Under the pieces are notes generated by a model that worked only from the letters and a program-made list of their open reading frames with translations, did no database searches and was not told where the DNA came from. The position numbers and the translations under genes were made by a program. A stretch of DNA of 43,585 nucleotides from Chiloscyllium plagiosum (taxonomy: Eukaryota). The stretch is from contig NC_057746.1 of assembly GCF_004010195.1 (NCBI RefSeq), forward strand, positions 30,220,045 to 30,263,629, in the 5' to 3' direction. Of the stretch, positions 8,101-39,731 are shown piece after piece; positions within the stretch are counted from its first letter, which is position 1; every line of letters begins with the position of its first letter.

Positions 8101-8678
8101 ACTATCTCCAGGATTGAATTATTTCTCACTAAATAAAAACCCCAGTGGGTCATGTTCTGTCTCCTGACCCTCACTATGTTCCTCCTTTTTACTTCCGTCT
8201 CCCTTTCCAGTCTCTGTGTCTGACTCTGAGACTTTAATGTTGCAGATTGCCTCTCCCTCCTGTTCCCTTATACTGACAGGAGCCAGCTCCAGGCTCTGTT
8301 CAGCTGATCAGAGACATTGGAGAAAGTTCTCACCTTTTCCCTGGACAGTCCCCAGCGGCTCCCCGTTCAACTCCTTGGATTTGATTGGGATCTTTCACGG
8401 GAATAATATCCACCCGATCCCACTGGGAATGACCCCTTCCTGAAATTAAAGAGGATTTGGGACTCACCTCTTACTTTCCCACAATCTGACCGAACATTTT
8501 CCGCCTTTTCCCGACAGATGTGTCAAAAGTAAAGACGTTCACAACAGCAGCCCCTCCCTGAAAAACATTACTTTCGTTTTTGACTGAATTCACTCTTTGG
8601 GTTTTGCTCCGTCCTTCGGCCAAATGTGTAACTGCAGGGAAATTGCTCCTTAAACGGTAATCCACAGAAAATTAATAA
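8101..8678 (-). promoter_or_regulatory. Promoter/non-coding exon-1 module, copy A
   Basis: About 11 differences by eye from copy B over ~575 bp. Donor GAG|GTGAGT at 8468, ISRE-like 8570-8580, kB-like 8637-8646. Confidence 0.65.
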
Positions 8679-8799
8679 AGTTAATAAAATTAATGATCGC
8701 CTCAAGCAATGCCATTCACTGATGAAGAGAAATCTGTGTGAATATATTTCATGGTGGGATCAGGAATATTTTCCAGGTTACACTTTGAATTCTGTTAGA

Positions 8800-9043
8800 G
8801 ACAAAAAAAACTGCAGATGCTGGAATCCAAACTCGAGAGGCAGGAGGCTGGAAGAACACAGCAAGCCAGGCAGCATCAGGAGGTGGAGAAGTCAACGTTT
8901 CAGGTATAACCCTTCACCCACCCCCAGTCCTGAAGAAGGGGTAGGTGGCTAGAATAACTCAGCAAGTCTGGCAGTATCTCTCATCTGTGGGCAGAAAGCA
9001 GGGATGCTGTCAGACCTGCTGAGTTATTCCAGCCTTTTCTGTT
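8800..9043. mobile_element. Penelope-derived short repeat with internal inverted arms
   Basis: ACTGCAGATGCTGGAATC..GGCAGCATC..ACGTTTCAGG; flanked by TTAGA at 8795-8799 and 9044-9048. Confidence 0.65.
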
Positions 9044-9499
9044 TTAGATTCCGTTGGGTGGAATGTCCAAATAAGTCACTGGACACCTGGGAGTTCACTT
9101 CCAGCATCAAAGAGTTTATTGGAATTACACGGGTGGGAAGAGACCCTCTGAGAATCCAGAGAGCTCTCCAGCCAACAGAGGAAATTTTATTTAAATCCCA
9201 TTTTCATACTTACAGTCCAATCAGTTCATTATTAATTACATCTACATCCAGTCAATAATTCACGTGACTGCGTGATCTATGATGAGTAACCCTGGGGACA
9301 ACTTCAAAATTTCTCATGCTCTCACGGTGTTTATGAGACACCCCATCTTTAACCTTGGGTTTCTTACAATGTGTTCAATCAACCCACATTCCAGTGCCTG
9401 CTAGTTTTTACATCTGTGATTCAATTCTTCATAATGAGGATATGGAGACTGCTCTTCACTGTCTAAGATTGACTTTCTCACCTCATTATTGTCATCAAG

Positions 9500-10805
9500 T
9501 CATAGAATCATAGAGATGTACAGCACGGAAACAGACCCTTTGGTCTAACTCGTCCATGGCTGACCAGGTATCACAAATGAATCTAGCCCCTTTTGCCAGT
9601 AATTGGTCCATATCCCTCTAAATCTTTCCTATTCACATATCCATCTGATTAGATTAGATTACTTACAGCATGGAAACAGGTCCTTCGGCCCAACAAGTCC
9701 ACACCAACCCTCCGAAGAGCAACCTACCCAGACCCATTCACCTAACACAACGGGCAATTTAGCATGGCCAATCCACCCTAACCTGCACATGTTTGGATTG
9801 TGGGAGGAAACCGACGCAGACACGGGGAGAATGTGCAAACTCCACACAGACAGTTGCCTGAGGTGGGAATTGAACCCGGGTCTCTGGCGCTGGGAGGCAG
9901 CAGTGCTAACCACTGTGCCACCGTGCCATCCACTGATGCCTTTTAAATGTTGCAATTGTACCAGCCTCCACAACTTCCTCTGGCAGCTCATTCCATACAC
10001 ATACTACACTCTCATGCAAAAGCTGCCCCTTAGGCCCCTTTTATATCTTTCCCCCTCACCTTAAACCTATGTCCTCTAGTTTTGGACTCCCCTATCCCAG
10101 GAAAAAGACCTTGTCTAATTACCCTATCCATGACCCTCATAGTTTTATAATCCTCTATTAGGTCCCCCCTCAGCCTCTGATGCTCCAGGGAAAATAACCC
10201 CAGCCTGTTCAGCCTCTCCCTATAGCTCAAACTCTCAAACAATGGCAACATCCCTGGAAATCTTTCCTGAATCCTTTCAAGTTTCACAACATTCTTCCGA
10301 CAGCAGGGAGCCCAGGATTAAACATAATATTCCAATTGTAGCTGAACTAATGTCTTGTATAGTTGCAACATGACCTCCTCACTCTGACACTCAATGTACT
10401 GACCAATAAATGATAGCATACTAAATGCTTTCTTCACTATCCTGTCTACCTGTGACTCAACTTTCAAGGAACTATGAACCTGCACTCCAAGGTCTCTTTA
10501 TTCAGCAATCCCCAGGACCCTAACATTAAGTGTATAAGTCCTGTCCTGATGGGCCTTTTCAAAATGCAGCACCTCACATTTATTTAAATTGAACTGCATC
10601 TGCTGCTCCTCGGCCTATTGGCCCATTTGATAATGATTCCATTGTATTGGAGGAAACCTTCTTGGCTGTCCACTACACCTCTAATTTTGATATTATCTGC
10701 AAACTTAGTTCTATATTCACATCCAAATCATTTATGTAAATGACGAAAAGCATTGAACCAAGCACATACCCTTGAGCCACACCACTGGTCAAAGGCCTTC
10801 AGTCT
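9500..10805 (-). mobile_element. CR1 LINE 3' portion
   Basis: KLERIQERF..LGLFSLE..LRGDLIE..TRGHRFKV (10030-10287); CATAGA-type tail at ~9500. Confidence 0.9.
9648..9928 (-). mobile_element. HE1-type SINE nested in CR1
   Basis: (ATTAG)n tail and GCTAACCACTGTGCCACCGTGCC head. Confidence 0.9.
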
Positions 10806-10952
10806 GAAATTCTTCATGAAATCTCTCATGCTTTTAATTTTTTTTGTGCATGTGAATCTACAACAACTTCAGAATTTATACTGATGGTTATTTGAAGAAT
10901 CTAAAATCTACGATTGCAATGGATTGACTAATTGAAAATTCACTTCATAATT

Positions 10953-11262
10953 CATGGTGACTCAGTGGATAGCACTGCTGCCTCACATCACCAGGGTCCC
11001 AGGTTCAATTCCAGCCTTGGGCGACTGTCTGTGTGGAGTTTGCACACTCTCCCTGAGTTTGCGTGGGTTTCCTCTGGGTGCTCTGGTTTTCTCCCACAGT
11101 CACAAAGATGTGCAGGTCAGATGAATTGGCCGTGCTAAATTGCCCATAGTGTTAGGTGCATTAGTCAGAGGGAAATGGGTCTGGATGGGTTACTCTTTGG
11201 AGGGTCGGTGTGGACTTGTTGGGCCGAAGGGCCTATTTCCACACTGTAGGGAATCTAATCTA
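10953..11262 (+). mobile_element. HE1-type SINE
   Basis: Head GGTGACTCAGTGGATAGCACTGCTGCCTCAC, B box GGTTCAATTCC, (AATCT)n tail. Confidence 0.9.
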
Positions 11263-11534
11263 AATGTAGAATTCTTATGTGATGTTCTCATCTAAGTATC
11301 ATGCGTAAGCCTGTTGTACGGTCTCAATCTGTTATTTTGGGAGCTACAGGACTGCTACCGTTGTTCCAACTTATGCTGACTATATTCAGCAAATATTTTC
11401 CCAAAACTTCCAAAGATCACGGTCAGCCATGTTTTTACTGCTTTTGCCAAGGGCAACTGTCGGCCATCTTGTGCTGCTCAGTGATGGACAGCCCTAACAT
11501 TCCTGATTTTCAACACCCATAGTTCTTTGAATTC

Positions 11535-11815
11535 CCGCCTTTGACTGCTCTGAGGGATCGTTCTTGGGGTAGAGTTTGAGAACCACTTGTTATTCCATAA
11601 CATTGAAGTTCAGTCACCAAACCTGGAAGAGAAATCCAAAATCTCAAAACACTCTGAGTGAAAGGGTTTCTCTCACTTGGTTCTAAATCTTTTGTCTTTA
11701 ATCTTACAGCATATGAGTCTTAGGCTATTGGAAACACTTGCTGCCTCTCCATAAACTGCACTGAAAGGTGAGGAACATTAGAAAGTGAGCAAACGGTGCA
11801 AAGACAGAATGGGCT
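11535..11815 (+). repeat. Upstream flank of module A, paralogous to 22622-22875
   Basis: Shared AGAGTTTGAGAACCAC..GGGTTTCTCTCACTTGG..TGCTGCCTCTCCATAAACTGCA; visibly more diverged than the core module. Confidence 0.85.
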
Positions 11816-12149
11816 TGACACTGAGCTACTGCCCATTCTAATCAGGAATGTATCTTTAATTTGCTGTTTCCTGCCCTATCACACACTTTATCCTTGGGCA
11901 TGGATATCACTGGCAAGTGATCTGCTGTCAGCCTGACTTGGCCCTTCTTGAAACATTGGTAAAGTTTTGACAGAACAGAGTGGCTGGTTAGGCAAGTAGT
12001 TCTCGAACTTCTTGGGTTGAAAGCTCTATTTTTAAACCAATCAGTAATCACTGACCACCCGCACTACCCACCACCCAATCCCCCACTGCTCCCCACCCCC
12101 AAACCGCACCGAACTTAGAATTGTCATAAGGTGGAATGTTTCAATCATT

Positions 12150-12390
12150 GGACGATAAGAAATAGGAACATGGGCAGGCCATTCTGCCCCTCAGGCCTGC
12201 TGCACCATTCAACAGGATCATGACTGATCTGACATTCCTAACATCCACTTTACTGAAGGGCTTTTGCCCGAAACGTCGATTTCGAAGCTCCTTGGATGCT
12301 GCCTGAATTGCTGTGCTCTTCCAGCACCACTGATCCAGAATTTTAGCCCTTTCCCCATAGCCTTTCACTCCCCTACTAAATGAGAATCAA
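12150..12390 (-). mobile_element. CR1 3' tail interrupted by a Penelope-derived fragment (~12250-12340)
   Basis: ATAAGAAATAGGAAC..GGCCATTC tail; GAAGGGCTTTTGCCCGAAACGTCG insert. Confidence 0.65.
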
Positions 12391-12489
12391 AATATCTCTT
12401 AGCTATTTTTTAAAAAATCCTATTTCCTTACTCTGAGAGAGTTATTAATGTTTGTCCTGCCCAGTCCACACTCAGAAAATATATTATGA

Positions 12490-12700
12490 TTTAGAGGAGT
12501 CGGTGTTGGACTGGGGTGGACAAAGTTAAAAATCACACAACACCAGGCTTCCAACAGGTTTATTTGGAAGCACTAGCTTTCGGAGCGCTGCCCCTTCATC
12601 AGGATGATGAAGAACCATCTGATCAAGGAGCAGCGTTCCGAAAGCTAGTGCTTCCAAATAAACCTGTTGGACTATAACCTGGTGTTGTGTGATTTTTAAC
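12490..12700. mobile_element. Penelope-derived inverted element (second family) with hammerhead-like cores
   Basis: GTTAAAAATCACACAACACCAGG..AACAGGTTTATTTGGAAGCACTAGCTTTCGGA arm and its reverse complement. Confidence 0.75.
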
Positions 12701-12984
12701 AGATATAAGAGAGTAGATAACTTAGAAACAGTTTGATTATTGGGACAATGATTGGTATTGTCAGAGAGGAATACCGAGTAAAACTATTTTCCTTGGAAGG
12801 TTTTTATTCTATGTAGAGCAATTAAAAATTTCAATTTGTAACTAACCTCAGGAGAATTAACAAGAATATGGCACAGAGCAGGTCTGGATTTATTAATTTA
12901 CGAGGACAATATTTGTAATAGCAGGTGAGAGAGTTGTGGGTCATTTTAAACTTATAGATTAACTATTTTATGTAACTCCCCTTC

Positions 12985-14576: not shown

Positions 14577-15076
14577 NNNNNNNNNNNNNNNNNNNNNNNN
14601 NNNNNNNNNNNNNNNNNNNNNNNNNNNNNNNNNNNNNNNNNNNNNNNNNNNNNNNNNNNNNNNNNNNNNNNNNNNNNNNNNNNNNNNNNNNNNNNNNNNN
14701 NNNNNNNNNNNNNNNNNNNNNNNNNNNNNNNNNNNNNNNNNNNNNNNNNNNNNNNNNNNNNNNNNNNNNNNNNNNNNNNNNNNNNNNNNNNNNNNNNNNN
14801 NNNNNNNNNNNNNNNNNNNNNNNNNNNNNNNNNNNNNNNNNNNNNNNNNNNNNNNNNNNNNNNNNNNNNNNNNNNNNNNNNNNNNNNNNNNNNNNNNNNN
14901 NNNNNNNNNNNNNNNNNNNNNNNNNNNNNNNNNNNNNNNNNNNNNNNNNNNNNNNNNNNNNNNNNNNNNNNNNNNNNNNNNNNNNNNNNNNNNNNNNNNN
15001 NNNNNNNNNNNNNNNNNNNNNNNNNNNNNNNNNNNNNNNNNNNNNNNNNNNNNNNNNNNNNNNNNNNNNNNNNNNN
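14577..15076. other. Assembly gap (500 N)
   Basis: Run of N. Confidence 1.
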
Positions 15077-16900: not shown

Positions 16901-17472
16901 CCTGGTGTTCATGCCCTTCAAACTACAGAGGAAGGAAGTTTTTCCATATTGGAACACAGGCTTGGCCAGTCATGACTGTCCTTGAGTATCCATCTTGGGG
17001 ATCAAGGGATAGGAATGTGGGAAACATCTTCCCATCCCATATTAAAAGGGAAGAGTGGGAGGCAGAAAGTATTCTGGTGATTTGGCCAATTCACCCATTT
17101 TGCTGAAGCCATTTTCTGAGCATTCCTCTAATGAGGAATGTCAAAATTCCACGATATTTTATGTAAACTCTGTGTAGATCTTTTTTGCACTTCATGTATT
17201 TACTTATAGATAATTTACAAATGAAACGTACTTTTGAAATTAAAAAAGTAAAAAAAAATTGTCTATCTCAACTTTTACCGTATCAGCTTCATGAAGGTAC
17301 ACCTTTCCCTGTTAGAGGAATACCTACAGATTTTTTTTCTGTGCATTATGAAATGCACAATGTGCAAGTATTTTTAACTGGATAAATAACATGTTTCATA
17401 AAAAAGCACTTGGATTTTGACTGAAATATCAATTTGATTTGATACTCATTTGTCGTTAATGTGTTTACTCAC

Positions 17473-17820
17473 CTCCAACTTTCAGCTCAATTGTAGTTTC
17501 TTCAAAATTTGCCTTATCATCAACGGTACACAGGTATTTCCCCTCATCAGACACCCTCGTGTTCTTTATTCGAAGAGAAACATTGCCTTTGGATACTTCA
17601 TCTTGAAACAGTTCAGTCCTTTTCCTGTATGCCTGATGTTGAGCAGCGGTGTCGTCTTGACCGTTTCTGTATGCGTGAACTGGTAACCGAATGTCTGATT
17701 TAAACCAGCGCACCACCATGTTGTTGACAAATACCTGCGGCACAAGGTAACACTCCAGGACAGCATCTTCCCCCACAATGGCTACCACAGGATGGCTTGG
17801 GCCACTCACTCGGAATTCAC
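17473..17820 (-). CDS. Butyrophilin/MOG-like IgV-domain exon (B7 family)
   Basis: 348-nt phase 1-1 exon between ctgcag (17826-17821) and GTGAGT (17472-17467). Encodes EFRVSGPSHPVVAIVGEDAVLEC..VRWFK..VHAYRNGQD..YRKRTELFQDEVSKGNVSLRIKNTRVSDEGKYLCTV..ELKVG with both Cys, the Trp and DxGxYxC. Confidence 0.95.
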
Positions 17821-18864
17821 CTGCAGAGTTAATGTCTCATTAAACTGCTCCAAATTTCAAACATATCCGTAATTAAACTTCAAAATCACTGTGTTATTAG
17901 AGACTACAATTTTAATCAAACAGCTATAAGCAACACCTTTAATTTATTTTCCTATGTAAATGTATTTATGATCCCATGTATCTACATTTATTATCCCTAG
18001 ATAGCTGTACTCATTTTCCTTTGTACCTGTACTTACTGCACTATGGACCGTATTTATTGCACTATATAGCCGTTGAGCAAAAAGATTTATTTTTCAAAAT
18101 CATTGTTTTTATTACCATAGAGATCAACAAACCAGAATTTACTGAAATATCCCAGTGATAAATAAGACAAGATTTCACTTAATCATCTTGAATGTAACCA
18201 AAACAAGCAGAAATGACACAAATTAACAAGTAATTTGTTGCTAATTAAACTATAAATCACATATTATGTAGCTGATACAACAAAGATCAAGCTCACAAAT
18301 TGGCAATTTCCTCAGTATAAATGGTACAAATCTCAGCTACAAAGTCCTTCAAAGCCCAAGATCTCCTCAGGTAGAATTCCAGTTCCTTCTTTAGGGAATT
18401 ACCCACCGACCTTCATCTGGCAACGGATGCCAACCAGAGTTCCCTGGGCACAGATATGACAAGAACTGTGTATTCTGGATCTCCCTCTCTAACAGCATTG
18501 TGGGTTTACTGACAGCACGTTGACTGCACAAGTTCAAGAAGCTAGTTCACCACCACCACCTCCTGAAGGGCATCTAGAGGAGAGTAGTACACACTGGCTC
18601 AGCCAGCAATGACCATGTCCCCTGCCTAAATAAAGGAAACGGCCTGTCTCAGTCTGAGACTGTGTCACCTGGTTCTAGACCCCTAGCAGGAGAAACATTC
18701 CTTCATCCTTCCTTGTCAATCCCTCCTGGAATTTTTCATGTCTGAATGAGGTCACTACAGAAAGTACAGGTCCCTGATCTTTCCTCATTGGACATTCCCT
18801 CCATCTCAGGAATGTGTTTGGTGAAACTTTGTTTCACTCCTTCTGTGCAAGTATCCTCCCTCAG

Positions 18865-18960
18865 AATCATAGAATCCCTACAGTGTGGAAACAAACCCTT
18901 AGGCCCAACAAGTAAACACCAACGCTCCAAAGAGTAACCTACCCAGACCCATTCCCATCT
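18865..18960 (-). mobile_element. HE1/CR1 tail fragment
   Basis: ATCATAGAATCCCTACAGTGTGGAAAC..GGCCCAACAAG. Confidence 0.7.
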
Positions 18961-19899
18961 CTATGATTCTATATACTTCAGTAAGGAGACTAGAGCTGGC
19001 CATGTGGACCCAGTCAGAAACCTGATCAAATTCCTGCCAATGTCCACTTTCGACCAAGCCAGCGATGAATATAGAACTTTTCCTCTATCTCTGCTACCAC
19101 TTCCAGTCAGAAAGTCTGCCAACTGAACCAAGTCCACTTCACACAGCCTTTCCCCACTCCAACATCACACAGACTACACTGTAACACAATGAACAGAGTA
19201 AATAATGTCCAGTTTAATAAATTTGCGATGGGTCTAGTTTTCTTTAATTCATATGTTTCTCTTTACATCTGAGTATATCTGAGGCTGTTGCTCAGTAATG
19301 TATTACCAGTCAATCCCTTCTGAAAGTAAACGAGAATTGAATGTTGCAGCTGATGTGGAGAAAAACAAATATTTCCAGCAACAGCAGAACCAATCACTGA
19401 GTCACAGAATCCTTCAGCACAGAAGGTAGCCATTCAGTCCATCGTGCCTACACTGTATTACCCAGTGTCAATCTCCTGCCTTTTGCCCATATTTTTCAAA
19501 ACTATTTTCATCCAAATAATCATCCAATGCCCTCTGGAATGTCTCAACTGAACATTCCACCACCCCACTTCCAGGCAGTATATTCCGTAGTCTAACCAGT
19601 TGCTGCGTGAAGATGTTTCTTACATCAGTTTTATCTAATTAACTAATGTGCCATTTCTAAACTGCTATTTCTTAAACAAACTTAACCAGCAGAAAGTTCC
19701 TTACAGATTATTGATTGCCTACATTAAATAATTGTGGTCATGAACCCCAAAACCTAGTATCGTTCGATGCTTTCACAAACATTTTATGGTCAAACCATAT
19801 TTTTGGAAATTGCACTGTATTGTGTGTGTCATTCCCTAAATTCATAAAACCATCTTAATATTTTGGGAAGGGGCTTGAACAGCTTTTAACTATTTATGA

Positions 19900-20370
19900 C
19901 GAACATAAGAACTAGGAGCAGGATAGGTTAACCGGCCCATTGAGCCTGCTCTGCCATTCAATACGATCATCGCTGATCATACTATGGACTCAGCTCCACT
20001 TCACTGCCTGCTCACCCTAACCTGATTTCTTTACTGTTCAAAAATTTATCTTTGCCTTAAAAACAATGAAGTAGCTTCAATTGCTTCACTGGGCAGGGCA
20101 TTCCACAGATTCAGAACCCTTTGGGTGTAGAAGTTCCTCCTCAGCTCAGGCCTACATCTGCTCCCCCTTATTTTGAGGCTATGCCCCCTCATTCTAGTTT
20201 CACCTGCCAGTGGAAACAACCTCCTTGCTTCTATCTTATCTGACCCCTGCATAATGTTTTTATAAGATTTCCCCCTCATTCTACAGAATTCCAATGAGTA
20301 TAGTCCCACTCGCCTCAATCTCTTCTCACAAACCAACCCCCTCAACTCCAGAATCCACCAAGTGAACTCT
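19900..20370 (-). mobile_element. CR1 LINE 3' end
   Basis: GLYSLEF..RGHSLKIRG..FYTQRVLNLWNALP. Confidence 0.9.
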
Positions 20371-21431
20371 CTCCTGTGTCAGGAGATGCTGAGGAGCTGG
20401 GAAAAAGGCAATAATTTCTGAGGATGAGAGCACTGTCAGGGACAAATATCACCAAGACCATGATAGCGCTATTCATCACTGAGTGCCAGGGCAGACAGAT
20501 CCTCGTTAATACTCATTTCTAATAGGTTTGTGTTGGGTGAAGATATCACTCAGTTTTGTTGATGTCTGTTGCTGCAAAGACAAACAGCCTGGGTGTTTCC
20601 TGATAAAAAAAAGTGTTTTGATTTGGTCTGTCTTTGCCCATCCTAATCTTCACCAAAAGATTCCTTCCCCATTGGTTTGAACATTTCACATCATCTGCTG
20701 TTCCCACCTTCAGGAATGGAGATTTTGCGTGTTCTGATGACAACTGGGAAGACAGTCACAGTCCATTCCGAGAGCATCGTGACATTTAATGGTGTGAACA
20801 GAGGTTGGCTTGAGGCTTCATTCATGATCCTGTGTCCGAGAGCTGCACACTCAGTTCTCTTAGAGTCAGGATCATAGCTGAACTGGTGTTACTTCCCCTT
20901 CCTGTCTTCCCCTGACCTTGGCTCACCTGTCAGTAAAATATATATCCAACTCAGCCATGGACATCATTAAATGTTCAGCTTCCACCACCTTCTGGGGAAG
21001 GAAATTCCACACTCTAAATGATCCTTGAGAAACAACATTCCCATCACCTTCTTAAAGGGAAGATTCCTTAATCTTAAACAATGTCCCTAGTTCCAGTCTC
21101 TCACACACAAGGGAAGACATCAACGAGGGATCCGCTCTATTCAATCGCTTCAAGAACTTTAATGTTTCACAGTCATTGCTGTCATCTGTTATGAATTCAT
21201 TTTAAGGAAAAGCCAAACTCTCTATTTGTTAAAATTGTGAAAGATTTTAAAGATATTATTTCCTCTGAACCAGCCTTTGAACCTATTCTCTGTAATGATT
21301 CCAAAGCAAAATCATTGACCAAAGTGTCAGTTAAGGTCCGAAATGTTCATTTACTAATACACAGTTCCAACTTCACACCAGGATTGTGTGTTGTATCTAA
21401 TCAATACTGATTAATTGTTAATGTTCCTTAC

Positions 21432-21489
21432 CATAGGCAGTGCATGGAATCCCAATCAGTAAAAGCAGAATGAGGTGAACTCCTTCCAT
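21432..21489 (-). CDS. Signal-peptide exon of the butyrophilin-like gene (whole exon 21519-21432)
   Basis: ttttgtttgtgtgtcag acceptor, 30-nt UTR, aagATGG Kozak context, MEGVHLILLLLIGIPCTAY+G, phase-1 donor GTAAGG. Joins in frame to the IgV exon (..AYG-EFRV). Confidence 0.9.
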
Positions 21490-21948
21490 CTTTGTGAGGT
21501 CTGTGCAGATTAACCTGGCCTGACACACAAACAAAATATAGCTGTCATTAGGGTCCTTCAATGTTTGCTTCAGAGTGTAAACATTTCATTGTTCAATACC
21601 CACTGTGTCAGAAACTCTATGAACACATTCTCCTGTCCAGGTTAACACAATTCTTTCACATTGACCTTTTTCATTTCATCAAAAACATGTGTCCTTTCAG
21701 CCAAAAAATATCTGAGAGCAGCAATGAGACATGGAAAGGCTTTCAGCACCATCTAAAAGGAGCAGGCAGCAGTGGAGAGGGATTAATGGGTTGAGAGAGT
21801 AGGAGAGATTTGGAGTTTAGGACCCAGGAAGCTGGACTCACTGCTGTCGATGGTGGGGACAGAAAACCCGAAATGGGAAAGCGGAGAATAGACTCAGCAC
21901 AAGTAAAACTCTTCAATTAAAGTTTGTTTCAGCAAAGGTGGCATCATA

Positions 21949-22527
21949 ACTATCTCCGGGATTGAATTATTTCTCACTAAATATAAACCCCAGTGGGTCA
22001 TATTCTGTCTCCTGGCCCTCACTATGTTCCTCCTTTTTACTTCCGTCTCCCTTTCCAGTCTCTGTGTCTGACTCTGAGACTTTAATGTTGCAGATTGCCT
22101 CTCCCTCCTGTTCCCTTATACTGACAGGAGCCAGCTCCAGGCTCTGTTCAGCTGATCAGAGACATTGGAGAAAGTTCTCACCTTTTCCCTGGACAATCCC
22201 CAGCGGCTTCCCGTTCAACTCCTTGGATTTGATTGGGATCTTTCAGCGGGAATAATATCCACCCGATCCCACTGGGAATGACTCCTTCCTGAAATTAAAG
22301 AGGATTTGGGACTCACCTCTTACTTTCCCACAATCTGACCGAACATTTTCCGCCTTTTCCCGACAGATGTGTAAAAAGTAAAGACGTTCACAACAGCAGC
22401 CCCTCCCTGAAAAACATTACTTTCGTTTTTGACTGAATTCACTCTTTGGGTTTTGCTCCGTCCTTCGGCCAAATGTGTAACTGCAGGGAAATTGCTCCTT
22501 AAACAATAATCCACAGAAAATTAATAA
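21949..22527 (-). promoter_or_regulatory. Promoter/non-coding exon-1 module, copy B (likely promoter of the BTN-like gene)
   Basis: Donor GAG|GTGAGT at 22317, 797 nt from the signal-exon acceptor. ISRE-like ACTTTCGTTTT 22419-22429, CCCCTCCC GC-box, kB-like GGGAAATTGC 22486-22495, local CpG enrichment. Confidence 0.7.
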
Positions 22528-22984
22528 TGGTCACCTCAATAAATGTCTTTAGTTGATGAAGTCTGTGTGTATATATTTCACGGCGGGACCAGAATTATTT
22601 TCCAGGCTACACTTTGAACTCCAGCCTCTGAGTGGTCTGTATTGAGGCAGAGTTTGAGAACCACCTGTCACTCCACAGCATTGAACCTCAGTCACTAAAC
22701 CTGTAAGAGAAATTCACATCCTCACAATACTCTGTGTGAAGGGGTTTCTCTCACTTGGCTCTAAATCTCTTGTCTTTATTCTGACAGCACTTGATTCCCT
22801 GGCCATTGGAAACACTTTGCTGCCTCTCCATAAACTGCATTAAAAAATGAGCAACATTAGAAAATTAGTGAAACAACTGCACAGAGGCTGGGTCCCATCA
22901 CCAAGTCACCCTTCACCTACTAGTGCACAGTACACTGGCTGCAGCCAATCAGCACAGAGTCAGTACTGAACTGAGGGTGTTTTT

Positions 22985-26170: not shown

Positions 26171-26197
26171 AGTGGAAGAGAATTTGTGAGTGTGAAG
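26171..26197 (+). other. Candidate orphan 27-nt exon resembling the butyrophilin pre-B30.2 exon
   Basis: tttattatttctgtttccag|AGTGGAAGAGAATTTGTGAGTGTGAAG|gtaaga; phase 1-1 reading (E)WKRICECE. Confidence 0.4.
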
Positions 26198-27922: not shown

Positions 27923-27924
27923 AG

Positions 27925-29450
27925 TTTCCAGGTGCACCATTTCAGAATGCTGCTAACCATGATCCTTTACAATCACCTTTGACCTGCCGAGAGGAAGAAT
28001 TTGTCTTCCAATACGCTGAGCATACTCAAAAGGAGACTCATAGAGTTTATTTCCCCCAAAAAACTAAACTAACTACAAAACACAAAAGGCACTTACTGGT
28101 GTCTCTACCCCCTGCCGACAAAGGGCACTTACATTTCCCACACACACCTCCATCCCCTCACTTCCAGCTCAAGCTGCACCCCAAACCCAAGCAATGGGAG
28201 AAACCAAACAAAGGACATTGTAAACACAGGGGTATAACCAAAACAGTGAGCCCTCTGCCCACTCCTCACAATATATAACTTTACCACTCCAGCTCGGAGA
28301 GAAAAAAACCCACCGACAACAGCTTCTTTGGGAAAAGAGTGAAAGTATAAGAAATAAAAGCAAGACAAAACAAAGCCCAGACACTGTTGTCCATGTCCAT
28401 AAACACATCGACATTATTTTAAAAGGTCCAAGAAGTTCTTGGCCTGCTCCAAGGAGTGAAACGACTGCACAGTCTCCTTGTACGTAATACAAAGCACTGC
28501 TGGGTAACTCATCGAATACTGAATACTGAGGTCCTTTAAACTTCTCTTAACCTCATCAAATGATTTCCTCTTATGGATCACTGCTGCAGAAAAGTCCTGG
28601 AAAAACATTATCTTAGTTCTCTGATAGGTCAGGGCCTGCGGTTCTCTCCCCAACCTTCTGGAAGCTGTCATGACTCTCTGCTAGTCCCTGTAGTATTGAA
28701 ATCAGATCAGAACCAGGTGGGGACACTGACCCTGACTGGATCTGTGCACCGCAACCCGGTGAGCTCTGTCAACCTTCACCCGGTCTGCCTTGGCATCCCA
28801 GCCAAGAAATGAGGCAACCAGTCTTCAAATAAACTTGCTGGCTGCCCACCTTCTACACCGTCCAGCAGGGCGATGACCCAGATATTTTTCCTCCTACCTC
28901 TATTTTCCAGGTCATTGACTTGCTGAGTCAGGGCCCGAGCCTGTTTCTCAAGGGCATGGATCTGCCCCGCTGAGGTCTCGACCTCAGTCTCTAACACTGC
29001 GGTCCGCTGCTCAACCTCTTCAACTCGCTTCCTGAGCCCTTCCAACTCCTTCTCATGCTTTTGCAGCATGGCTGAGATGGGCTCTCGGTGATTATGAGTC
29101 TCTTCTCTCATCTCCTGGATCAGCTGTCGGATCACTCCGAGTTTCTCCATGATGTTGTGCTGTGCAGGCATTTCTATCACAGCTGGTGAGGGAGCTGCAG
29201 CTGCTGCCCCAGTCACAGTCTCGGGCCCACTCACTGTTTCAGAGTGTCCCGAGTGTTGAGACTTGGCCGTTTGCTTCCTCTTAGTCATTCTCACACACTC
29301 CAAAAAGGTTTTAAACAGTTCTTTTATCGTTTAACAATAATTTCTTTGTAAAAATAACTAAGGTGGGGGGTGAAAACATATTACTGCCTTGGGTTGGGGT
29401 GCAGAGCTCAGCAAAGCTGATCTATTCAGATTGCCACCATCTTGAATCCC
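27925..29450 (-). mobile_element. L1 element 5' half: 5' UTR, disrupted ORF1p, inter-ORF spacer and first codons of ORF2
   Basis: Coiled coil plus DLENRGRRKNIWVIAL (28776-29303) and IMFFQDFSAAVIHKRKSF..YPAVL (28414-28671) match L1 ORF1p (Transposase_22). MVSSILKWCTW near 27960 is an ORF2 start. Confidence 0.88.
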
Positions 29451-29451
29451 C

Positions 29452-30080: not shown

Positions 30081-31943
30081 TCCTCTGGGCCCCCTTCAAT
30101 CCAGTACATCTTTCCTTAGATATGGAGCCCAAAACTGCTTTTGTATTTTCAACGTTGCACATTGCCAACATCCGAACTGCCAACTAAACCGATATTAATA
30201 TTTAGTGAATTCTGAAATAGGACTCCAAACTCTGTCTGTTCTTCAGATTTCTGAAGCCTTTTTCTAGCTATAAAATTCACTTTTATTCTTCCAATCAAAA
30301 TGCATGGCCTCACACTTTCCCACATTGTATTCCATCTGCCACTTCTTTGCCCACCCTTGTAGCCTGTCTATGTCTTTCTGTGGCCTCCTTGCTTCCTCAA
30401 TACGACTTGCCCCTCCACTTAACTTTGTGTCATTTGCAAACTTCACAACAATATCCTTAGATCCTTCTCTGAGATCATTAATATTTTGTGTGGAGAGTTA
30501 TGGTCCCAACACTGACCCCTGCAGAGTTCCACTCATCACTGGCAGCCACCCTGACAGAAGACCCCTGTTACATCCCCACTGTCTGCCACCTGCCAGTCAG
30601 CCAATCCTCTATCCATGTCAGTACATTGCCCTGAACGCCATGGGTTCTTACACCTTGTCAGAGGCCTTCAGAAAATCCAAATAGATCATGTCTACTCAGT
30701 AATAGAATCCTAATAGAGCCATACAGCGTGGAACAGACCCTTCGGTCCAACCAGTCCATGCTGAACGTAATTCTGAAATAAATGAGTCCTATCTGCCTGC
30801 TCCGAGCCCATATCTCTCCAAACCTTCCCCATTCTCGTACTTATCCAAATGTCCTTTAAACATTATAATTGTAGCTGCATCCACCACTTCCTCAGGAAGT
30901 TCACTGCACATACAAACCACCCTCTTGTAAAGAAATCGCATCCTATATCTTTAAAATTTCTCTCCTCACATCTTAAAAATGTGCCCCCTGTATTTGAAAT
31001 CCCCTCTCCTAGGGAAAAGACAACTACCATTAACCCTATACCTCTTATTATTTTAGAAACTTCTCGTAGGTCACCTCTCATCCNNNNNNNNNNNNNNNNN
31101 NNNNNNNNNNNNNNNNNNNNNNNNNNNNNNNNNNNNNNNNNNNNNNNNNNNNNNNNNNNNNNNNNNNNNNNNNNNNNNNNNNNNNNNNNNNNNNNNNNNN
31201 NNNNNNNNNNNNNNNNNNNNNNNNNNNNNNNNNNNNNNNNNNNNNNNNNNNNNNNNNNNNNNNNNNNNNNNNNNNNNNNNNNNNNNNNNNNNNNNNNNNN
31301 NNNNNNNNNNNNNNNNNNNNNNNNNNNNNNNNNNNNNNNNNNNNNNNNNNNNNNNNNNNNNNNNTCATCCGCAAACTTACTCACTATGCCTTCTACGTTT
31401 CATCCAAATCATTTATATAGACGACAAACAAAAGAGGACCCCGAACTGATCCCTGTCGAACATTGCTGGTCACACGTCTCCAGTCTGGAAAGTAACCCTC
31501 CACCATTGCTCTGTCTCCTGCTGTTCAGCCAATTATGTATCCAATTGGCAAGGACACCCTGAATCCCATGGGACCTAACTTTCCTAATTAGGCTACCAGG
31601 CAGAACCGTGTTAAAGGCTTCACTAAAATCCAAATAAACAATGTCAATTACTCTGCCATCAACAATCTTTTTGGTAACTTGCTCAAAAAAAAACAATCAA
31701 GTTTATGAGATATGATTTTCCTCACACAAAACCATGCTGACTCCCTAATCAATTTTTACCTCTCGAAATGTTCCTAAATCCTATCTCCAACAATTTACCC
31801 ACAACCAAAGTCAGACTCGCAGGTCTATTGCTCCCTGGGGGTTACTCCTCATAACCTTTCTTAAACAAAGGTACAACATTAGCCACCCTCCAGTTATCAG
31901 GCACCCCACACGTAGTTAGAGATGATGCAGATATGTCTGCAAG
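30080..31943 (-). mobile_element. Nested CR1 fragments spanning the gap at 31084-31364
   Basis: KFANDTKL..WQMEYNVGKC; YLDFSEAFN; WRVANVVPLFKKG. Confidence 0.85.
31084..31364. other. Assembly gap (281 N)
   Basis: Run of N. Confidence 1.
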
Positions 31944-32443
31944 NNNNNNNNNNNNNNNNNNNNNNNNNNNNNNNNNNNNNNNNNNNNNNNNNNNNNNNNN
32001 NNNNNNNNNNNNNNNNNNNNNNNNNNNNNNNNNNNNNNNNNNNNNNNNNNNNNNNNNNNNNNNNNNNNNNNNNNNNNNNNNNNNNNNNNNNNNNNNNNNN
32101 NNNNNNNNNNNNNNNNNNNNNNNNNNNNNNNNNNNNNNNNNNNNNNNNNNNNNNNNNNNNNNNNNNNNNNNNNNNNNNNNNNNNNNNNNNNNNNNNNNNN
32201 NNNNNNNNNNNNNNNNNNNNNNNNNNNNNNNNNNNNNNNNNNNNNNNNNNNNNNNNNNNNNNNNNNNNNNNNNNNNNNNNNNNNNNNNNNNNNNNNNNNN
32301 NNNNNNNNNNNNNNNNNNNNNNNNNNNNNNNNNNNNNNNNNNNNNNNNNNNNNNNNNNNNNNNNNNNNNNNNNNNNNNNNNNNNNNNNNNNNNNNNNNNN
32401 NNNNNNNNNNNNNNNNNNNNNNNNNNNNNNNNNNNNNNNNNNN
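31944..32443. other. Assembly gap (500 N)
   Basis: Run of N. Confidence 1.
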
Positions 32444-33099
32444 CTGGGAGGAGTGTGCGGCAGATCAGTATCACTGTGTAACAGACTGGAAGGAGTGTGC
32501 GGCAGGTGAGTATCACTGTGTAACAGACTGGGAGGAGAGTGCGGCAGGTCAGTCTCACTGTGTAACAGACTGGGAGGAGTGTGCGGCAGATCAGTATCAC
32601 TGTGTAACAGACTGGAAGGAGTGTGCGGCAGGTGAGTATCACTGTGTAACAGACTGGGAGGAGAGTGCGGCAGGTCAGTCTCACTGTGTAACAGACTGGG
32701 AGGAGTGTGCGGCAGATCAGTATCACTGTGTAACAGACTGGAAGGAGTGTGCGGCAGGTGAGTATCACTGTGTAACAGACTGGGAGGAGAGTGCGGCAGG
32801 TCAGTCTCACTGTGTAACAGACTGGGAGGAGTGTGCGGCAGGTCAGTATCACTGTGTAACAGACTGGGAGGAGAGTGCGGCAGGTCAGTATCACTGTGTA
32901 ACAGACTGGGAGGAGTGTGCGGCAGGTCAGTATCACTGTGTAACAGACTGGGAGGAGAGTGCGGCAGGTCAGTATCACTGTGTAACAGACTGGGAGGAGT
33001 GTGCGGCAGGTCAGTATCACTGTGTAACAGACTGGGAGGAGAGTGCGGCAGGTCAGTATCACTGTGTAACAGACTGGGAGGAGTGTGCGGCAGGTCAGT
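32444..33099. repeat. 42-bp minisatellite, at least 15.6 units (runs into the gap)
   Basis: Unit CTGGGAGGAGWGTGCGGCAGGTCAGTATCACTGTGTAACAGA. Confidence 0.98.
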
Positions 33100-33870
33100 T
33101 CTTACTTGAATGGTAAGAAATTGCAGCACGCTGCTCTGTAGAGGGACCTGGGTGTCCTTGTGCATGAATCACAGAAGATTGGTCTGCGGGTACAACAGGT
33201 AATTAAGAAGGCACATGGAATTTTGTCCTTTATTGCTAAAGGGAATGAGTTTAAAAGCAGGGAGGTTATATTGCAGCTGAATAGGGTGCTGGCGAGGCCA
33301 CACTTAGAGTATAGTGTGCATGTTTTGGCCTCCTTACTTGAGAAAAGATGTACTAACACTGGAGGGGGTGCAGACGAGGTTCTCTAGATTGATTCTGGAT
33401 TTGAGGGGGTTAGCTTATGAGGAGGGACTGAGTAGACTGGGGATTATACTCATTGGAATTTAGAAGAATGAGAGGGTATCTTATCGAAACATATAAAATT
33501 ATGAAGGGAATAGTTAAGATGTAAGTAGAGAGGATGTTTTAAACTGGTGGGTTAAACTGGGACAAGAGGGCATCGCCTCAAAATGAGGGCGAGCAGATTT
33601 AGGCCGGAATTGAAAAGGAACTTCTTTACCGGAGGATTGTGAATCTATGGAATTCCCTGCCCAGTGAAGTCGTTGAGTCTTCCTCAGAAAATGTTTTTAA
33701 AGCTACGATAGGTAATTTTTTTGAACAGTAAATGAATTAAAGGTTATGGTGAGTGAGTGGGGAAGTGGAGCTGAGTCCATGAAAAGATCAGCCATGATCT
33801 TACTGAATGGCGGAGCAGGTTCGAAGGGCTACATGGTCTACTCCTGCTTCTAGTTCTTACATTGTGCTCT
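33100..33870 (+). mobile_element. CR1 LINE 3' portion
   Basis: VQQVIKKAHGILSFI..ARPHLEY; tail CTACTCCTGCTTCTAGTTCTTA. Confidence 0.9.
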
Positions 33871-33889
33871 TATGTAAGAGAAGAGAATA

Positions 33890-36800
33890 GAGAAACCTGG
33901 GCAGATAATGTGTTGCAGCTGTAGTATGTGGGAACTGGTGATGCCAGTGTCACCCACAGTGACCATATCTGTAGCAAGTGTTGGCTAATCATAGAACTTT
34001 GACTCAGAGCTGATGAGCTGGAATTGAGCTGCTGATACTGTGAACCACCAGGGAAGGGGAGCAGTACCTGAACAGCTCTTAGTTTAACGACATCAAACGT
34101 AGTCCATGGTCAGGACCAGGGCAATGTGACTGTTATTGAGGCAGGTTTTGGGATCCAGAATTCAGCTTCACAGGAGCCTTTGCCAGTCCCTTGTCCCTAA
34201 GGTACAGTCTGAATGAGGGTACAGACTGAAGGGAGGGAAAGTGAACTGACCCCCCACCAGTCTGATGGGGGAAGAATAGAGAAATGTATGGTAATAGGGG
34301 ACTGACAGAGTTAGGGGAATAGATACTCTTCTCTGCAGCGATGACAGGATGTCCCATAGGCACTGTTGCCTGTCTGGTGCCAAGATTAAGGACATCTCTT
34401 CTGGGCTGGAGAATAATTTAATGTGGGAGGGGAAGGATCCAGTTAACATTGTCCACATACATACCAATTACATAGGCAGAACAAGGAAAGAGATTATGCT
34501 GAGAGATTATGAACAGCTCAGGGCAAAATTCAATAGAAAAACCACAAAGTTAATGATGTCCAGATTACAACCTGACATGTAAATTGCAATAATGTAAGCA
34601 AGAGTAGAGAGAGCTTAAATATTGGTGTGGAAGAAATGGGCACTGGGACCAGAAAATAATTTATTTTAAATCAATATTTAATATCAGTCTTCATGGTGGA
34701 GAACACTACAAAACATCCCAAAGATATCAGATCAGTTAGTTACTGATGAGAGAAAATGTCTCGTCACAATCTTTATCATGACAGCCAAAGTATTTGACAA
34801 ACCAATGGGACTAAAAGTAGGCAGATCACCAGGGCCTGATGGCCTGCATCCAGCAGTTTTAAAGGAAGTTACTGCAGAGACAGTGGGGGCATTAGTTAAA
34901 ATATTCCAGAATTCACTGGAATCCAGGGTGTTCCCAGCAGATTTGACTGAGTTTTTTGAAGAAGTAACAAAGAGGACTGATGACAGCAGAGTGGTAGATG
35001 TGATCTATATGGATTTCAGTAAAAATGTTCCACAAAATTCCCCATGGGAGATTGGTTAGCAAGGTTGGATCTCATGGAATACAGGGAGAACTAGCCATTT
35101 TGATACAGAACTGCTTCAAAGGTAAGAACAGAAGGGGGTGTTGGTGGAGGGTTGCTTTTCAGACTGGAGGCCTGTGACCAGTGGTGTGCCGCAAGGATCG
35201 GTGTTGGGTCCAGTACTTTTCATCATTTATATACATGATTTGGATGCGAGCATTAGAGGTATAGTTATTAATTTTCCAGATGACACCAAAATTGAGGTGT
35301 AGTGGACAGCAAAGAGGGTTACCTCAGATCTTGATCAAATGGGCCAATGGGATGAGGAGTGGCAGATGGAGTTCAATTTAGGTAAATGTGAGGTGCTGCA
35401 TTTTGGGAAAGGCAATCTTAGCAGGAAGTAGACACTTAATGGTAAGGTCCTCAGGTGTGTTGCTAAACAAAGAGACCTTGGAATACAGGTTCATAGTTCC
35501 TTGAAGTGAAGAAGGCGTTTGGTATGCTTTCCTTTATTGGTCAGAGTATTGAGTACAGGAGTTGGGAGGTCATGTTGCAACTGTACAGGACATTGGTGAG
35601 GCCACTGTTGGAATATTGCATGCAATTCTGGTCTCCTATCTATCGGAAAGATGTTGTGAAACTTGAAAGGGTTCAGAAAAGATTTACAAGGATGTTGCAA
35701 GGGTTGGAGGATTTGAGCTATTGGGAGAGGTTGACCAGGCTAGGGCTGTTTTCCCTGGAGCGTCGGAGGCTGAGGAGGGATATTGTAGAGGTTTATAAAA
35801 TCATGAGGGGCATGGATAGGATAAATAGTCAAAAGTGTTTCCCTGGGGTGGGGGTGTCCAGAACTAGAGGGCATAGGTTTAGGGTGAGAGATGAAAGATA
35901 TAAAAGAGACTTAAGGGGCAACTTTTCACGCAGAGGTTGGCACGTGTATGTAATGAGCTGCCAGGGGAAGTGGTGGAGGCTAGTACAATTGCAATATTTA
36001 AAAGGCATCTGAATGGGTATATGAATAGGAAGGGTTTGGAGGGATATGGGCCAGGTGCTGGCAGGTGGGTTTGAGATATCTTGTCGGCATGGACGAGTTG
36101 GACCGAAGGGTCTGCTTCCATGCTGTACATCTCAATGACTGTCTGACTCTACATGATAGTGCATTAAAGAAGGGAGGGAAACAGAAACCAGGAAACGATT
36201 GGTCAGTTAGTCTTTCATTCAGGAAATGCCATTGGTCAGGAAGAAATAGCAAAAGATTTAGAAAAGCTGAACATAATCAAACAGAGTCAACATGCTTTGT
36301 GCAAGAGAAATTACGCTTGACAAACTTTCGAGAGTTCTTTGACGATATAAAAACTAGAGTTGCTGAAGGGAACTGGTGAAAGGAGCTCACTTGGATTTCC
36401 AGAAGACATTTGATAAGGTCCTTGACTCTTGCACATGCTCAAGGTATTGGGGTAATGTATTAGCATGGATTAAGATTCAGTGATCACACAAAACACACAG
36501 TCAGATTTGATGAGTCTTTTTTAGGTTGGAACAAATTAATCAGTGGATTCCTACAAGCCCAAATTATTTACTGCCCATATTAATGACTCACGGGAAGAGA
36601 GACAGCATAATGAATCAAAATTTGCTGATGGTGACAAAATGATATGTTGTGATGAGGAAATAAGAAATCTCCAGGGGAATATCGATAGGTTTGATGAGTG
36701 GACTGAAACTTGGCAGATGGAGTTTAATGGAGCAAAATATAAGGTGATGCACTTTGGTAGGAACAATCAAAAAGGCAAACAATTACATAGATGGAAGGAG

Positions 36801-37760
36801 ACTCCATAGAAAAATGCCATGAAGAAGGATCTGGGTGTTCTTGTGCATGAAACACAAAAACGTTAAAATGGAGGTGCAGCAAGTAAATACAGCTAGATTG
36901 CTGGGTTCAGAGCAGAAAGCATGGCTCCAAGTTTACAACACTAGCTTTCAAAAGAAACATGAGAGAACAAATCCTCTTAAAAGCACATCTTGTAATAGCT
37001 CTAACTATGTCCCCTTGTTTGAGATTTCCCCACTATTGGAAACAACTCAACACATACCCAAATCAAGCCCCTGTCAAATTTTCCTTTCAGAAAGACTACC
37101 CCTAATTCTTCTAAACTCTCATGAGTAAACATATTTTCGTGTCTTTTTTTTAATTGGCGGTCGTATATTAGCGTGAATAGAGAATTGGCCAATTTAATAT
37201 TGGACAGAGAATTGGGATAAGGGGCCCATTTTCTGGATGGCAACCTGCAACTAATGGAGTGCCACAGAGGTCAATATTTGGGCCAAAATTATTCACGATA
37301 AATATAAATGATTTGGATGATGGAAGTGAATGTAATGTTCCAAGTTTGTGACTGATACGAAAATAGGTGAGAGTGAAGTGGATGACACAGAAACTACACA
37401 TGGATATAGACAGGGTTAGCGAGTGGACAAGATCTTGGCAGGTGGGATGTACAGGTCAACAGCCATATCTGCGGAACCGCTTTCCACAGATTCAGTTACC
37501 CGCAGTTTACCGTGGCCCAAACATATTATAGGGAACCTTCTGGAACCAGGGACCTGCCGGGAAGGTAAATTTCCCATTTAAATGAATGGGGTCGTACCTA
37601 TCCATGGTTTCAGGCTTCTGTGGTTGGTCTTGGAACATATACCCCGTAGGTATGGCAGGACTACTGTGATGTGGGGAAATATCAGTTTATACACCTTGGT
37701 TGGAAGAATAGAGAAACGGAATATTATTTAAATGGAGAAAAATTGCAAAGGGTCACACCA
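33890..37760 (+). mobile_element. Cluster of nested CR1 fragments; youngest piece ~34935-36150
   Basis: CCLSGAKIKD..VHIHTN; SPGPDGLHPAVLKE; YMDFSK; YRTLVRPLLEYCMQFWSP..TRGHRFR; KFADG..WQMEFN. Confidence 0.88.
37452..37666. mobile_element. Tigger/pogo-derived MITE (MER8-like) inserted in CR1
   Basis: TA|CAGG..GCCATATCTGCGG left end and CCGTAGGTATGGCAGGACTACTG right end form imperfect TIRs; CGCTTTCC..TTCAGTTACCCGC subterminal motif. Confidence 0.6.
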
Positions 37761-37774
37761 TAAATGAATTTGCT

Positions 37775-38360
37775 AGTCACAGAATCAGACAGCACAGACA
37801 TAGACCCTGCAGTCCAATTCAACAGCACTACATATACATCCAATCTGTCCTACTCCCATTTACTATCATTTGGTCCATATCCCTCTAAACCTTTCCTATT
37901 CATATCCCTGTCCAGATGTCTTTTAAATGTTGTAATTGTACCAGCCTCCACCACTTTCTCTAGCAGCTCATTCCATACTCACACCATGGACTCTCTCGCC
38001 TCAAATAATGCTGACCTTGCTAATGATGCTGTTGCCTACTGCGCACCCTGTACAATGTAACCTGTATGCCTCTGTCTACATCTTTCTACATCTATACGTC
38101 CTGTTTACTATGATCTGCCGGTAATGCTTGTAAAAAAAGCTTTTTACTGTACTTTGGTACACGAGACAATAAATACTTCAAGTCAAATAAAATCTCTGCA
38201 TTAAAAAGTTACCCCCAGATCATTTTTAAATCTTTCCCCTCTCACTTTACACCTATGCCCTCTAGTTTTGGCCTCTTCCACCACAAGAAAAAGACTTTGC
38301 CTATTTACCCTATCCATGCCCTTCCTGATTTTATAAATTCACCCTCCAGCCTCCAGGGGA
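37775..38360 (-). mobile_element. CR1 3' end interrupted by a Rex1-like 3' tail (~37985-38180, plus)
   Basis: CR1 tail wording; AAAGCTTTTTACTGTACTTTGGTACACGAGACAATAAA. Confidence 0.7.
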
Positions 38361-38511
38361 AACACAGCCCACCTCCTAACAACAAAAATCCCTGCACCTT
38401 CAAGTTGTCTGCCCTGACAGTGAACGGGATAACAATCTCTCAGGCCATTTTCCAGAGGACATGGCCCTTGCTCTTAATTTGATCTGTTTTGGATCCTGAG
38501 GGCAGTTTGAA

Positions 38512-38820
38512 CTAGATTAGATTACCTACAGTGTGAAACAGGCCCTTCGGCCCAACAAGTCCACACCGACCCACCACCCATCCAGACCCATTCCCCTACA
38601 TTTACCCCTTCACGTAACACTACGGGCAATTTAGCATGGCCAATTCACCTAACCTACACATTTTTGGACTGTGGGTGGAAGCCAGAGCACCCAGAGGAAA
38701 CCCACACAGACACAGGGAGAATGTACAAATTCCACACAGACAGTTGCCTGAGGCGGGAATTGAACCCGAGTCTCTGGTGGTGTGAGGCAGCAGTGCTAAC
38801 CACTATGTCACCGTGCCACC
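38512..38820 (-). mobile_element. HE1-type SINE
   Basis: (ATTAG)n tail, GCTAACCACTATGTCACCGTGCC head. Confidence 0.9.
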
Positions 38821-39184
38821 CACAAACTGGTCAGAGATGTTAACCACTCCGTACACTGACAGTGAGTCTAAGCAGGAGATAATGATGATGTCTATGTCCT
38901 GGGAGGTTTGTACCTCAGAGTCTCCACAATCTGAGATCATCCCCTCCACTTCTCACATACCCCCATCCTGGCTGATGGGATTCAGGAAAAAGGACAACAG
39001 AGGGATAGATCTGCTCGTGCTTCACAGAATGACAGAATGATGATGTTGTATAGGGAGGCCATATTGCCCATCATGCCTACACCAGCTCTTTAAAGACAAG
39101 ACTTAAACAAAGGAGCAATGTCGATGAAGAAATGCGGAACATTAACCTGCTTTAAAGGTTTGTTCCCCGAGATGTAAACACTCA

Positions 39185-39731
39185 ACTATCTCCAGGATTG
39201 AATTATTTCTCTTTAAATTGAAACCCCAGTGGGTCATGTTCTGTCTCCTGGCCCTCACTATGTTCCTCCTTTTTACTTCCGTCTCCCTTTCCAGTCTCTG
39301 TGTTTGACCCTGAGACTTTAATGTTGCAGATTGCCTCTCCCTCCTGTTCCCTTATACTGACAGGAGCCAGCTCCAGGCTCTGTTCAGCTGATCAGAGACA
39401 TTGGAGAAAGTTCTCATCTTTTCCCTGGACAGTCCCCAGCGGCTCCGCGTTCAACTCCTTGGATTTGATTGGGATCTTTCAGCGGGAATAATATCCACCC
39501 GATCTCACTGGGAATGACCCCTTCCTGAAATTAAAGAGGATTTGGGACTCACCTCTTATTTTCCCACAATCTGATCGAACATTTTCCGCCTTTTCCCGAC
39601 AGATGTGTAAAAAGTAAAGACGTTCACAACAGCAGCCCCTCCCTGAAAAACATTACTTTCGTTTTTGACTGAATTCACTCTTTGGGTTTTGCTCCGTCCT
39701 TCGGCCAAATGTGTAACTGCAGGGAAATTGC
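39185..39731 (-). promoter_or_regulatory. Promoter/non-coding exon-1 module, copy C (upstream side ends at a CR1)
   Basis: About 97% identical to copies A and B by eye. Donor at 39553, ISRE-like 39655-39665, kB-like 39722-39731 directly abutting CR1. Confidence 0.65.

Follow-up and report, generated by a model that had tools for sequence, protein, structure and literature searches.

The bamboo-shark (Chiloscyllium plagiosum) stretch considered here, called the window throughout, comprises 43,585 nucleotides of contig NC_057746.1 (assembly GCF_004010195.1, positions 30,220,045 to 30,263,629) and is a butyrophilin (BTN) gene cluster; all positions below are counted from its first letter. It contains three near-identical copies, A, B and C, of a short cassette. 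The cassette is read here as holding a BTN gene's spliced, non-coding exon 1 and its likely promoter; by public gene models it also stands before distantly related BTN paralogues, and recurrent gene conversion among neighbouring genes would keep its copies near-identical. This reading is given a probability of roughly two in three. The feature is real and wider than the window: a promoter/5′-exon module common to ancient BTN paralogues and probably homogenised by gene conversion.

An initial annotation proposed three copies of a promoter/first-exon unit of about 570 bp within diverged flanks, and self-BLAST of the window recovers all three where they had been placed. Copies A and C (8099-8646 against 39183-39731) are 97.5% identical, and B (21948-22495) is 97.1% identical to C. 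The cores and the flanks shared by A and B are as follows:

8099..8646, minus strand: core of copy A, with exon-1 donor, internal acceptor, second donor and interferon regulatory factor (IRF)-type site intact
21948..22495, minus strand: core of copy B, 548 bp holding a promoter-like upstream part, exon 1 and the beginning of intron 1
39184..39731, minus strand: core of copy C, with the second donor destroyed (GT to AT at 39417)
7898..8098, minus strand: downstream flank of A, homologous to B 21741-21947 (77% identity along the whole flank; within 7935-8100, about 88% of aligned bases match)
11525..11804, minus strand: upstream flank of A, past an inserted repeat block, homologous to B 22612-22885 (about 79-83%)

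The alignment of A with B passes through the core and out on both sides. As a whole it is 90.5% identical (7935-8792 against 21788-22621), and a separate upstream match (11548-11784 against 22626-22863) reaches 82.8%. Over 8101-8672, 573 positions hold 562 matches, 10 mismatches and one gap, in agreement with the roughly 11 differences counted earlier, whereas 484 aligned flank bases hold 411 matches and 73 mismatches (15.1%; Fisher p 1e-16 for core against flank). The A and C cores are separated by 13 mismatches and one gap, the B and C cores by 16 mismatches. The sharp identity step between A and B stands as well: in a change-point analysis, the best-fitting positions are 8111 and 8655 (support intervals 8100-8179 and 8642-8675), with a log-likelihood gain of 29.5 against at most 9.5 in 100 permutations. 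A high-identity segment with sharp edges and diverged homologous flanks, a hallmark of gene conversion, is therefore present.

The length of about 570 bp describes A and B, but the unit common to all three copies is 548 bp. The edges of C, which correspond to A positions 8099 and 8646, fall at or inside the two change-point intervals and are compatible with both steps; such agreement is expected where exchange can extend no further than the homology with a distant paralogue. Copy C has no flanks alignable in BLAST, bar a faint trace of 30-60 bp of homology on its left side (a level reached by 1 and 4 of 150 shuffles). On its right side, self-matches reveal an adjoining 3′ fragment of a long interspersed nuclear element (LINE), which we take to be of the CR1 type. 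The common orientation of the copies holds as assembled, but A, B and C lie on three different contigs divided by N runs (14577-15076, 31084-31364 and 31944-32443), which makes their order and orientation relative to one another dependent on scaffolding. GC content is 46-47% in the core against 41-42% in the B flanks and 44-45% in the contigs, a difference confounded by the CpG-richer promoter.

Copy B heads a gene with a signal-peptide exon followed by a phase-1 IgV exon of the BTN/MOG type, which identifies it as a BTN; the IgV exon also matches BTN/MOG structures. Its exons in the window are:

22317..22400, minus strand: exon 1 of the BTN gene, non-coding; 3′ end (22317) from RNA joints, 5′ end a probable placement
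21432..21519, minus strand: BTN signal-peptide exon, with the ATG at 21489
17473..17820, minus strand: BTN IgV exon, 98-99% identical to Chiloscyllium punctatum and Hemiscyllium BTN3A3-like models
22182..22288, minus strand: alternative internal 5′ untranslated region (5′-UTR) exon inside the core; acceptor used in one run, donor at 22182 predicted
22535..22736, minus strand: alternative upstream exon beyond the core, joined to 22288 in a single run (X4) and extending to at least 22736

Four sequencing runs (X4, X17, X21 and X22) were mapped on 17300-22900. Contigs from two of the four (X4 and X17) contain the splices from 22317 to 21519 and from 21432 to 17820, both with GT-AG ends. The spliced X4 contig is 1979 bases long and continues for 1510 bases beyond the IgV exon. 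Run X4 is labelled 'DNA?'; it is treated as a transcriptome because several intron bins lack depth and the joints are canonical, although a processed copy is a formal possibility. The single-cell runs are uninformative, with 0 reads in X22 and about 2 reads on exon 1 in X21. A word search of sequencing runs listed no match recorded as RNA; three other organisms contained 0.22-0.31 of the words, compared with 0.475 for A plus C in the window, and no conclusion here draws on them. No IgC, transmembrane, heptad or B30.2 exon of the B gene is found in the window; its nearest models (P0002 and P0124) do have these domains. Among the fetched proteins, the C. plagiosum models of this gene type are just a detached B30.2 piece and a partial duplicate.

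The name promoter/first-exon cassette is apt insofar as the unit contains a real spliced BTN first exon, but about 370 bp of it lie beyond the exon-1 donor, and the start of some transcripts falls upstream of the unit. The main transcription start appears to lie within the core. In A, the donor equivalent to that of the upstream exon (22535) is GC.

Several smaller observations concern exon 1 and the transcripts. An 8-codon upstream open reading frame (22346-22320, minus strand) lies in exon 1 and ends three bases before the donor; situated inside a stretch unchanged in the zebra shark, it could be a target of constraint. At window position 22625, X4 has 9 extra bases that resemble the homologous flank of A, which indicates a small deletion allele in the upstream exon of B as it stands in the window. 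Record 11 of X4, a contig of depth 166, matches 22138-22223 at about 92% before continuing into 119 bases absent from the window, and marks another locus with an abundant and more strongly diverged copy. Possibly a further one is seen in record 12, which has 6 differences over 22165-22260.

Within the window, BTN coding exons follow B only, as first described: the 8 kb downstream of A hold no BTN coding exon, and a search with the N-termini of 136 proteins and 29 later ones finds no signal-peptide exon downstream of A or C. The idea that the cassette is common to genes of the cluster gains its support from public gene models, two of which open with the same exon and the same donor. These two (P0140 and P0161) are the only ones of 165 fetched proteins to begin with the cassette translation, the first 120 residues of each having been searched. 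In P0140 of C. plagiosum (XP_043533798.1), 19 codons match up to the exon-1 donor and are followed by an IgV domain 51% identical to that of B. A stop codon sets A apart from this model, a single residue C, and upstream residues B, so the front end of the model is probably a fourth copy; the part of its peptide that lies upstream of exon 1 shows no significant homology (41 of 500 shuffles). In P0161 of the zebra shark (XP_059495480.1), 69 codons match from 22524 to the same donor (cost 29.5, where 15 shuffles all cost at least 97), and the IgV domain that follows is 44% identical to that of B. An exhaustive search with the translated cassette yields two weak, chance-like matches (25-36% identity). 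The translated cassette has no match in a clustered database, a blank that is uninformative because P0140, not a representative there, is also missed.

The age of these genes was judged from a midpoint-rooted tree with 70 rows: the window IgV, three units of a fused whale-shark model, and 66 cartilaginous-fish proteins chosen by hand from the fetched ones, with most isoforms and all non-chondrichthyans set aside. B, P0140 and P0069, the cluster representative that stands in the tree for P0161, fall in three well-supported clades. The B clade and the P0140 clade each include rays, which implies that these BTN duplications predate the shark-ray split, about 250-300 million years ago.

As to which genes the other copies belong to, it may be guessed that C heads a gene of the P0067 type. 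In the fused whale-shark model a P0067-type gene immediately precedes that of the B type, and in the zebra shark such a gene carries the module; no C. plagiosum protein of this type is among the 120 listed. A similar guess is that A may head a gene of the P0026 type, whose C. punctatum accession adjoins that of the B-type gene. Chiloscyllium has partial near-identical BTN duplicates (P0022, P0023 and P0140, models in which the IgV is truncated, or the signal peptide or B30.2 is missing), and Stegostoma has several near-identical B-type models; together these suggest that the BTN cluster is turning over. In P0060 and P0127, zebra- and whale-shark proteins of the P0141 clade, the signal peptide begins MEG... 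as in the B clade, as opposed to the MKE/MKQ... of their own clade, possibly the result of an older conversion that reached into the signal exon.

The identity step had been attributed to gene conversion or strong constraint, and conversion fits better than constraint alone, with a short core that additionally looks constrained. A comparison with the zebra shark bears on this. Over 22366-22495, no fewer than 15 changes in 43 codons are required for its copy, corresponding to about 15% divergence by simulation (10-20% also fit), while A, B and C show one difference in the same 130 bp (P 2e-8, 2e-5 and 0.02 at expected divergences of 15%, 10% and 4.5%). Because the upstream part varies between lineages and is near-invariant among the bamboo-shark copies, constraint alone is unlikely. 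It is thus quite improbable that purifying selection by itself, without sequence exchange, keeps the module alike in old paralogues, even though part of the unit does behave as if selected. The last 16 exon-1 codons are unchanged in the zebra shark (no changed codon in 16, compared with 14 in the 43 upstream; p 0.007), so the last 48 exon bases look constrained; the 19 matching codons of P0140, the IRF-type site, at which the zebra-shark peptide needs no change, and the centring of the unit on a transcribed first exon point the same way. The intron speaks against selection alone, as A and B differ at 4 positions in 234 bp below the second donor (98% identical), and the longest run invariant in A, B and C, 122 bp around the IRF-type site, is not longer than chance (P 0.15). 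One contig also looks mosaic: X4 record 10 (21768-22194, 2 differences from B) combines the B flank and B-private alleles with C alleles at 22068 and 22073, not at 22181, which is a conversion-patch pattern.

One-off short duplications or unequal crossovers might instead have placed the front end of one gene on others, or on an orphan site, with no conversion continuing afterwards. The lack of BLAST-alignable flanks at C would suit such events, as would the partial BTN duplicates in Chiloscyllium and a plus-strand BTN micro-exon 3.4 kb from B on the same contig, which suggests rearrangement. This account is nevertheless improbable: the flanks of A and B are homologous yet diverged on either side of the core, a pattern that a single crossover does not produce, faint homology continues to the left of C, and a zebra-shark gene of a third clade also has the module. 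That the copies were produced or smoothed by a fragmented assembly is very unlikely. Their location on three contigs and the absence of BTN 3′ exons from the window would be compatible with it, but the copies have private alleles, B is matched over 21768-22194 with two differences in X4, and X17 contains A-type alleles (the 22246 deletion and 22373) as well as a C-type contig that enters a non-B flank for 120 bases; the presence of these sequences in X17 argues against an artefact. Collapse, moreover, requires prior near-identity and would not make a step. Hardly any credence is due to a young transposable element or solo long terminal repeat co-opted as a promoter. A size of about 550 bp, 97-98% identity, sharp edges at C and more diverged partial copies transcribed elsewhere (X4 records 11 and 12) resemble what such an element would leave. 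Many dispersed copies with transposon hallmarks had been named beforehand as grounds for abandoning the proposal, and a search at C for two such hallmarks finds neither: its edges show no direct repeat of at least 5 bp (a target-site duplication) and no terminal inverted repeat. A and B lie at homologous sites, each gene-assignable copy precedes a BTN gene, Rfam returns 0 matches, and the core lacks the read pile-up seen for repeats of the same stretch.

Several points weigh against repeated conversion as the explanation. If constraint limited the core to an expected divergence of about 3%, counts as low as those between A and B would not be surprising (130 bp, P 0.10; whole core, P 0.04). The comparison with the zebra shark is made at the peptide level and with a different paralogue, which keeps it from being a clean orthologue test, and the 19-codon identity of P0140 may reflect constraint and not conversion. 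Three sequences without outgroup DNA give no donor-informative sites. Record 10 of X4 is a single contig of depth 6.4 and could be an assembly chimera. The junctions of A and the copy number are those of the assembly. P0140 and P0161 are automated models, from which their exon-to-IgV joins are taken; a ground for trusting them is that both end at the donor used in B.

Under the favoured explanation of promoter-centred conversion, neighbouring BTN genes would mispair at the sole segment that they still share, and short conversion tracts would overwrite about 550 bp there, leaving coding exons and flanks to diverge. With a remote paralogue such as C, exchange would be limited to the extent of shared homology. 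Purifying selection might additionally act on a short core, the last 48 exon bases and probably the IRF-type site, and such selection, perhaps for co-expression, could keep the homology alive. A and C would then be the front ends of other BTN genes, with coding exons in gaps or outside the window, and the module-bearing genes are predicted to be co-expressed and interferon-responsive.

The copies had also been suggested to be a homogenised immune-inducible promoter shared across the cluster. Sharing is borne out and homogenisation is likely; a kappaB-like site is at chance level, no Y box stands where an SXY module would place it, and inducibility is only predicted. One candidate regulatory element recurs:

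22419..22429, minus strand: candidate IRF/interferon-stimulated response element (ISRE)-type site AAAACGAAAGT, present also at 8570-8580 and 39655-39665

The site was called with what we take to be the IRF/ISRE consensus. It occurs once per copy, near the probable transcription start, where about 0.02 are expected per 548 bp (shuffle mean), and the pattern has 5 matches in the window, 3 of them in the cassette copies, against 1.67 expected by chance. A kappaB-like decamer was rejected, with 141 one-mismatch matches against 220 expected. Between the IRF-type site and the exon-1 donor there is no Y box; the CCAAT/ATTGG motif is confined to 22164 and 22232, on the downstream side of the donor. 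Interferon inducibility of the module is a prediction by analogy with human BTN3A promoters (PMC11257985).

If repeated conversion of the front end is the correct explanation, the cluster offers a clean case of conversion acting on regulation, not on coding sequence, across very old paralogues. Very different receptors would switch on together, a concrete and testable list of co-regulated shark BTN genes would follow, and short reads could not assign promoter or 5′-UTR signal among the module-bearing genes. Butyrophilin heteromers regulate gamma-delta T cells in mammals (PMC6868513). A bolder and rather doubtful extension would be that carpet sharks, through promoter-aimed conversion, keep one interferon-responsive module identical across BTN genes older than the shark-ray split, such that distant chains are always made together as partners of heteromers directed at gamma-delta T cells.

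Other features of the window lie apart from the copies. On the contig of B and the opposite strand, 26171-26197 (plus strand) is a 27-nt phase-1 BTN heptad micro-exon encoding EWKRICECE, as in C. plagiosum P0084 and P0139, with good splice sites. It is the sole full-length perfect BTN match among 88 candidates, no other exon of its gene is found in the window, and it suggests an inversion, nesting or a remnant. A 184-codon frame at 28776-29330 (minus strand) has coiled-coil Pfam matches below the cut-off and presumably resembles an L1/Tx1 ORF1 fragment. A 42-bp minisatellite of 15.6 copies (94% matches) occupies 32444-33099, adjoining a 500-N gap. A long decayed LINE with endonuclease and reverse-transcriptase fragments extends over about 760-3900 (minus strand), and a repeat resembling a short interspersed nuclear element interrupts it near 440-760.

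A literature search with poor coverage of subscription papers found no paper on the shark module and little on shark BTN genes, and a term search of the bamboo-shark genome paper, confined to its main text, gave no mention of butyrophilin (PMC7677710). To call the cassette an undescribed system is nonetheless an overstatement: concerted evolution and shared 5′ ends have been described in human BTN3A and chicken BG genes, and the shark module is a variant of this known BTN/BG concerted evolution, neither a new system nor a new kind of element. Conversion of 5′ sequence, comprising upstream DNA and first exons, also links the immune-receptor paralogues SIGLEC11 and SIGLEC16; unlike the shark case, it concerns one gene pair and includes coding exons.

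In chicken, expression follows the promoter and 5′-UTR types common to groups of BG genes, and the remaining gene parts have histories of their own; the authors prefer unequal crossing-over as the mechanism and report no obvious evidence of homogenisation (PMC4046983). Both systems are tandem BTN-family clusters in which a promoter and 5′ UTR are common to groups of genes, but in chicken BG the promoters are of two types and the V regions poorly resolved, whereas the shark has one module, IgV domains 44-51% identical and two-sided identity steps (PMC4046983). Among hominoid BTN3A1-3, the IgV domain is homogenised (PMC6790196), and the human BTN3A promoters have an ISRE, IRF1 dependence and an SXY module (PMC11257985). 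The shark resembles them in the homogenisation of a 5′ part among BTN paralogues and in an ISRE-type promoter site (PMC6790196; PMC11257985). It differs in that non-coding DNA of duplicates older than the shark-ray split is concerned, not the coding IgV of primate-age duplicates (PMC6790196), and in that no Y box stands where the SXY module would have it (PMC11257985). The name 'BTN3A3-like' given to the shark models is an automatic label and does not denote orthology. The mammalian pairs BMP8A/B, DDX19A/B and TUBG1/2 provide a parallel in form, in that long-lasting conversion is limited to one segment, intron included, between diverged neighbouring sequence (PMC2720389). In these pairs the upstream regulatory regions diverge, whereas in the shark the regulatory front end is itself the converted part (PMC2720389).

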